A DNA stretch of 724 nt, taken from assembly GCF_003334335.1 (NCBI RefSeq), contig NZ_QOWQ01000153.1; one strand, 5' to 3'. The position numbers and the translations under genes were made by a program. The notes under the pieces are model-generated. The model saw only the letters and a list, made by a program, of their open reading frames with translations, was not told the DNA's origin and did no database searches. Numbering within the stretch: position 1 is the first letter of the stretch; every line of letters begins with the position of its first letter. The stretch is from Escherichia coli (GTDB taxonomy: Bacteria; Pseudomonadota; Gammaproteobacteria; Enterobacterales; Enterobacteriaceae). This document shows positions 676 through 724 of this stretch, piece after piece.

Positions 676-724
676 GTACTCGGAAGCTCACAACAACAAA
701 AGGGCCACCAGCTCTTTACTGATG

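Follow-up and report, generated by a model that had tools for sequence, protein, structure and literature searches.

A Terminator-Like Hairpin at the Upstream Edge of the Lysis Cassette in Escherichia coli Lambdoid Prophages

The leader of a class II holin gene in Escherichia coli lambdoid prophages carries a stable hairpin with a U-rich tail, which lies between genes, is asymmetric with respect to strand and retains its pairing through compensated changes across different upstream contexts. On the evidence of sequence and predicted folding, this hairpin is probably an internal, Rho-independent (intrinsic) terminator that borders the prophage lysis cassette on its upstream side. It is an ordinary element of an expected kind, but it is unannotated and widespread.

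Genomic Context of the Holin Leader

The window, the 724-nt stretch of E. coli DNA analyzed here, matches several complete E. coli chromosomes at 100% identity and phage PhiR5_1 at 97.5%, and was extended through an identical E. coli prophage (NZ_AP022815.1, hereafter locus L001, in which the window position equals 6725 minus the locus position). The window contains two genes:

448..663, minus strand: class II holin gene (RefSeq annotation), 71 aa, beginning MYQMEK with Met1 and Met4
1..443 (L001 6282-6623), minus strand: YdfR/DUF1327-type ORF 3' of the holin gene, an incomplete pseudogene here according to RefSeq

The ATG of the holin gene occupies 663..661 on the minus strand, and PHROG holin families match the 71-aa ORF of the window with E = 2e-40. 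An intact 211-aa version of the YdfR/DUF1327-type protein is found in the PhiR5_1 annotation (L002 6281-6916), where its gene overlaps an opposite-strand DUF1823 gene. The extended locus has the order Q, a small hypothetical ORF, a DNA methyltransferase, three tRNAs, TerB, DUF3927, a SASA sialate esterase (NanS-p type), DUF1378, DUF826, the holin, YdfR, an oppositely oriented small hypothetical gene (DUF1823 in PhiR5_1), lysozyme, three small ORFs including a lysis (spanin-like) protein, and terminase.

At its other end, the window holds a second terminator-like site (4..36, plus strand; L001 6721..6689, minus strand) consisting of AGCACCTCATTTTTTGTTGGGGTGCT followed by TTTTTTC, with a dG of -14.0 and a d score of about +15. 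This site is antisense to the YdfR-type ORF and probably terminates the small opposite-strand gene (L001 6865-7125; the DUF1823 gene of PhiR5_1) that ends ~145 nt before it.

The Q gene ends at L001 182, 5.8 kb upstream of the holin-leader hairpin. Directly after Q are a pR'-like promoter at L001 172-200 (TTGCAA-17-TATATT) and, at L001 255-269, a strong terminator (CCCGCCACTGGCGGG-TTTTTT), and this pR'/tR'-like pair is 5.7 kb upstream of the hairpin. The same promoter-terminator layout next to Q is annotated in the GenBank record of phage 933W (AF125520), and the Term-seq study of EHEC Sakai (Sy, 2020; PMC7547250) places a mapped tR' next to Q in that strain; the short tR' transcript of Stx phages is StxS. 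The first-pass annotation of the window had suggested that the holin is unusually close to the Q antitermination checkpoint, a suggestion that does not survive this distance and the presence of a separate promoter-terminator pair beside Q.

A Stable Hairpin and U-Rich Tail in the Holin Leader

Read from 724 to 681 on the minus strand, the edge of the window is CATCAGTAAAGAGCTGGTGGCCCTTTTGTTGTTGTGAGCTTCCG. Here the first-pass annotation had picked out a GC-rich block (GAGCTGGTGGCCC, 714..702), a T-rich tract (TTTTGTTGTTGTG, 701..689) and a TAA at 718..716, all of which are present as described, although the block and tract lie 26-51 nt upstream of the holin start and not 40-60 nt as it had reckoned. 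Its central proposal, that on the holin-coding strand the block forms the 3' arm, and the tract the U-tract, of a terminator-like hairpin, is borne out: when the sequence was extended rightwards and folded, a stable hairpin formed with a complementary arm that is present in L001. The hairpin spans L001 5996-6024 (AGGGTCATCAGT-AAAGA-GCTGGTGGCCCT, then TTTGTTGTTGTG) and has a 12-bp stem and a 5-nt loop, with the following parts in the window:

718..724, minus strand: in-window part of the 5' arm, CATCAGT; the full arm is AGGGTCATCAGT (L001 5996-6007)
713..717 (L001 6008-6012), minus strand: loop AAAGA, from the predicted fold
701..712 (L001 6013-6024), minus strand: 3' arm GCTGGTGGCCCT, the GC-rich block of the first-pass annotation
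689..700, minus strand: T-rich tail TTTGTTGTTGTG, 8 T in 12
671..686, minus strand: small leader hairpin CTTCCG-AGTA-CGGGAG, from predicted folds, directly downstream of the terminator-like hairpin

The stem includes six G-C pairs and three G·U pairs, and it is because of the latter that the complementarity is missed by a simple reverse-complement reading. The 5' arm had been expected to lie wholly beyond position 724; 7 of its 12 bases are in fact within the window (724..718), and the remaining 5 nt (AGGGT, L001 5996-6000) are past the edge. Downstream of the stem the sequence continues UUUGUUGUUGUG, which in RNA gives UUUU followed by GUUGUUGU (8 U in 12), and when the closing T at 701 is counted TTTT forms the first four bases past the GC stem. 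The U-tract is broken by a G (UUUUGUUGUUG), so that termination here may be partial in efficiency.

The element is intergenic and shares the strand of both its neighbors: it begins 9 nt past the stop codon of DUF826 (TAA at L001 5984-5986, outside the window) and ends 37 nt short of the holin ATG, and no ORFs were found across it on the sense strand. The TAA at 718..716, which had been offered as the possible end of an upstream gene, consists of the last base of the 5' arm and two loop bases, and no ORF of at least 20 aa ends there. The hairpin and T-run are unidirectional; a terminator acting on the opposite strand was ruled out, as no T-run lies past the stem on that strand.

The GC-rich block and T-run at the holin leader exceed chance expectation. 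A 59-nt segment containing them folds at -22.4 kcal/mol, compared with -13.6 +/- 2.5 for shuffled sequences (z = -3.5), and 1 of 200 shuffles folded equally well. The hairpin itself has a dG of -17 to -19 kcal/mol and is the minimum-energy element in both the 59-nt (z = -3.5) and the 171-nt (z = -3.1) contexts. A stringent scan of 116 kb of related loci, requiring a single hairpin with dG <= -14 and, 3' of it, 7 T or more in 12, found 0.224 sites per kb per strand, and this hairpin was the only strong terminator-like site that it returned on the sense strand of L001 from the esterase gene to the holin. On the classical, d'Aubenton-Carafa-type scale the hairpin reaches about +20, in line with other terminator-like sites in the locus; the copy in Sp5 and 933W has a mismatch in its stem and scores marginally (d about -2).

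Conservation Across Related Loci

Two scans of viral contigs recovered 188 loci with the same holin leader, the upstream sequences of which reduce to 24-30 distinct versions. A hairpin and T-rich run precede the holin in every one of these loci (188/188), with the hairpin ending 37-40 nt before the ATG on a minimal-stem reading; a few have a longer best-scoring fold that ends 33 nt from it. Across the variants the single hairpin has a dG of -11 to -21, the T-rich tail contains 6-9 T in 12 with variable exact sequence, and the loop differs among lineages in both sequence and length (AAAGA, ACTTA, TGTGA, GTG, and others). The loci fall into at least six stem lineages, given here as 5' arm/3' arm:

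Lineage A (the window): AGGGTCATCAGT/GCTGGTGGCCCT
Lineage B (the commonest, about half of the loci): GAGCCATCAGT/ACTGGTGGCTT
Lineage C: AGGGGCTGTCGG/CTGATGCCCCT
Lineage D: GGACCATCGG/CCGGTGGTCT
Lineage E (Sakai Sp5 and 933W): GGGCCATCAGT/GCTGCTGGCCT
Lineage F: GAGGCTGTCAGTG/CACTGGCGGCCTT

One locus (L059) has an unrelated stem at the equivalent spot (CCTCCGGC/GCCGGAGG). When 21 distinct variants were aligned, 94.4% of cells were paired, as against 29-71% in slid controls; 5 of the 12 pairs show double-sided changes and two are invariant, and RNAalifold independently returned a matching helix of 11 pairs. Judged from the alignment, the pairing pattern is that of a selected RNA stem, though the variants share descent and the compensatory changes thus amount to few independent events.

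The hairpin is retained in varied company. Upstream of it are DUF826-type ORFs of four lineages, with stop codons 4-12 nt 5' of the hairpin, while no upstream ORF was found in lineages B and F or in prophage PP2 of EPEC E2348/69. Of 5,426 complete E. coli genomes, 2,180 contain a homologous segment that covers at least 80% of a 96-nt query, frequently more than once, and where the upstream gene is a different one the alignments start at the foot of the hairpin, which therefore delimits the conserved lysis module on its upstream side. Copies of the hairpin are present in the Stx2a prophages Sakai Sp5 and 933W (L088 5765-5791).

Two loci have rearrangements at this position. The IMG/VR contig L102 carries a chimeric but fully paired hairpin, in which an upstream gene and 5' arm of type E (GGGCCATCAGT) are joined to a loop, 3' arm and leader of type B (AGTTA-ACTGGTGGCTT...TCAGC), an arrangement that by its sequence indicates recombination inside the hairpin. 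In prophage PP5 of E2348/69 (L084 ~2545-2580), the hairpin and T-run CCGTCAGTGGGTGACACTGGCGG-CTTTTTTGTG are followed directly by the IS4-like element ISEc13, which replaces the holin leader.

Small RNAs and Holin Translation Signals

Searches of Rfam at gathering thresholds (L001 and ten variant loci), and with E up to 10 around the site, returned no match at the hairpin. Small RNAs known from the late region of prophages were considered and set aside as identities for it: of PasA and PasC, reported between the esterase and the holin, PasA is antisense and ~210 nt upstream of the hairpin; AgvB and AsxR are antisense and next to stx; HnrS is located elsewhere; and in the case of PasD/STnc100, STnc100 is upstream of the esterase. 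The Hfq-CRAC table of Tree (2014) has no orphan peak near Sp5 position 1,272,750 (+), and STnc100 itself has been related to PasD as a family in a 2026 preprint. Copies of STnc100 (Rfam, 143-161 bits) are found upstream of the esterase gene at L001 2926-3131 (+) and at L019 105-295 and 573-782 (+), and are evidence for sense-strand promoters within the late region that are active in the lysogen. The 3' arm of the Sakai Sp5 copy (GCUGCUGGCC, L087 7236-7250) includes UGCUGGC, the core of the target motif CUGNUGCUGG reported for the neighboring antisense sRNA PasA; the version of the hairpin in the window differs from it by one base, and the 7-nt match may be a coincidence.

The small CTTCCG/CGGGAG stem downstream of the terminator-like hairpin is near-invariant across loci and has a variable loop (AGTA, GATAA, GATTG). 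Its 3' arm, CGGGAG, holds Shine-Dalgarno-like bases (GGGAG) ~8 nt before Met1, and this predicted structure probably concerns holin translation rather than termination; it may provide sdi-like control of the Met1 and Met4 starts. In addition, eight Watson-Crick pairs can form on the minus strand between UGUUGUGA, the distal T-run (window 695..688), and UCACAACA in holin codons 7-9 (644..637).

Proposed Function and Alternative Explanations

From the features described above we infer termination at the hairpin, its efficiency, read-through by Q-modified polymerase and a role in keeping the lysis genes off in the lysogen. Polymerase without Q modification, arriving from the promoters of accessory genes (morons) or sRNAs or by read-through, would transcribe the hairpin and the U-rich stretch, pause on the weak rU:dA hybrid and release the transcript, and the lysogen would consequently lack mRNA for holin, endolysin and spanin. 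Upon induction, Q would load on polymerase at pR'/qut, 5.7 kb upstream, and the terminator-resistant, Q-modified polymerase would pass the hairpin and express the lysis genes. This last step is expected because lambda-type Q complexes are terminator-resistant, a property that is well established.

Published data provide some context for these steps. Review literature describes late-region morons as possibly having a promoter and terminator of their own, and NanS-p as beneficial to lysogens. In RNA-seq of uninduced EPEC E2348/69, the homologous prophage PP2 has baseMean values of 102 for the esterase, about 11,000 for PasD2, 3.5 for the holin and 3.2 for the lysozyme; the ~30-fold drop from esterase to holin is circumstantial support for termination and could arise anywhere in the 450-nt intergenic region, which also contains antisense PasA.

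The reading as an internal terminator has to be weighed against several others. That the hairpin represents tR', the Q-antiterminated checkpoint terminator of the late operon, in a position unusually near the holin, is extremely improbable: it has the appearance of a terminator, on the late-operon strand and upstream of the lysis genes, but the tRNAs, TerB, DUF3927, esterase, DUF1378 and DUF826 intervene between it and the promoter and strong terminator that adjoin Q, which is also where tR' was mapped in Sakai and annotated in 933W. That identity is refuted by position, and by its place in the sequence the holin-leader hairpin is an additional, internal terminator candidate. We also consider it unlikely that the main role of the region is translational, with the pairing between the distal T-run and codons 7-9 enclosing the ribosome-binding site and both start codons, the closed leader throttling or timing holin synthesis, and the GC hairpin being a mere structural neighbor. 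The eight pairs are indeed predicted in the minimum-energy fold, where lineages A, C, D, E and F give them a probability of about 0.8, and their 3' arm is within the ribosome footprint of both start codons; however, an uncompensated G-to-C change in lineage B (window 688) lowers the probability to at most 0.19, the pairing is absent from the E2348/69 leader, and the invariance of the holin codons leaves no covariation to assess. Moreover, such a role would leave unexplained both the conserved GC hairpin and the unrelated hairpin and T-run of L059. On the predicted folds, the pairing could at most have a secondary function added to termination.

The combination of a terminator hairpin and U-tail is equally the standard Hfq-binding and stabilizing module of RNA 3' ends, which raises the possibility that the element mainly protects the DUF826/esterase mRNA from exonucleases or ends an Hfq-binding 3'-UTR sRNA. 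The late-region slot is rich in sRNAs (PasA/PasC, PasD/STnc100, AgvB/AsxR), and lineages B and F have no upstream ORF, but given that none of the loci tested has an Rfam family at the site, that the Hfq-CRAC table has no orphan peak near the Sp5 position and that PasA is on the opposite strand and ~210 nt away, we give this possibility little weight; it would in any case need termination at the hairpin and thus largely overlaps with the main explanation. A role without any RNA function, in which a module-boundary sequence is kept by recombination between mosaic lambdoid phages, or an inverted repeat is simply inherited, appears similarly doubtful. The homology between genomes with different upstream genes begins exactly at the hairpin, L102 naturally combines a 5' arm of type E with a 3' arm of type B, and an IS element lies directly past the T-run in PP5 of E2348/69, all of which are compatible with a recombination joint. 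A pure joint, however, requires neither a stem nor strand asymmetry nor a T-run, whereas pairing has been kept through double-sided changes, the T-run is confined to the 3' side in every case, and L059 has a non-homologous hairpin and T-run in the equivalent spot. These views could also be combined into a two-layer "lysis lock" of the lysis cassette, with a terminator acting against all non-Q polymerase, re-pairing of the distal U-tract with codons 7-9 in read-through transcripts so as to shut the ribosome-binding region and adjust holin timing, and a recombination joint for the swapping of accessory modules; we hold this composite to be improbable, and if true it would mean that one short sequence couples transcriptional insulation, holin timing and mosaic module exchange.

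If the hairpin does act as an internal terminator, it would help to explain how late accessory genes (the sialate esterase, sRNAs and, under its own promoter in related phages, Stx1) are expressed in lysogens without transcription of the adjacent holin and endolysin genes and self-killing, and it would account for the strict Q dependence of lysis. Annotation of the hairpin would improve operon models of Stx prophages.

Comparison With Known Systems

The hairpin is unmentioned in the RefSeq and GenBank records examined and in the literature searched, which contained no specific description of a terminator between stx or moron genes and S. In the 933W record (AF125520), no terminator is annotated before S, despite the homologous copy at L088 5765-5791.

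Structures of the sdi type in the leaders of dual-start holins, known from lambda S and reported for S21, overlap the ribosome-binding site or start codon. Here too a structured RNA element occupies the leader of a holin with two starts (Met1/Met4), but the terminator-like hairpin ends 37 nt before Met1 and touches neither the ribosome-binding site nor the start codon, and was rejected as an sdi-type structure on the grounds that it has no overlap with the Shine-Dalgarno sequence or start codon; the small CTTCCG/CGGGAG hairpin (686..671) is the better candidate for that role. The S21-type holin leaders of K-12 (essQ and essD) have no adjacent hairpin, so the element is not obligatory for this class of holin.

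Like a lambda-type tR', the hairpin would be an intrinsic terminator in the late operon for which override by Q-modified polymerase is expected; unlike tR', which adjoins Q and ends the constitutive pR' leader, it lies 5.7 kb downstream, past the accessory genes. The late-region terminators annotated in 933W, upstream of the tRNA genes and of stx2 (AF125520), resemble it in combining a GC hairpin and T-run on the same strand of a Q-controlled unit, and they too are presumably read through by Q-modified polymerase. They differ from the holin-leader hairpin, which is directly before S and has a longer stem (11-12 bp with G·U pairs) and an interrupted U-tract.

The terminators of morons, the promoter-gene-terminator units of lambdoid phages such as HK97 and HK022, share with the hairpin a position directly past the last accessory ORF, at the 3' boundary of an accessory block between pR' and the lysis genes. 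In contrast to a moron terminator, however, the hairpin persists when the upstream gene is swapped or absent and travels with the leader of the lysis cassette, and for this reason its behavior resembles that of a 5' boundary of the lysis module more than that of a feature belonging to any single moron.
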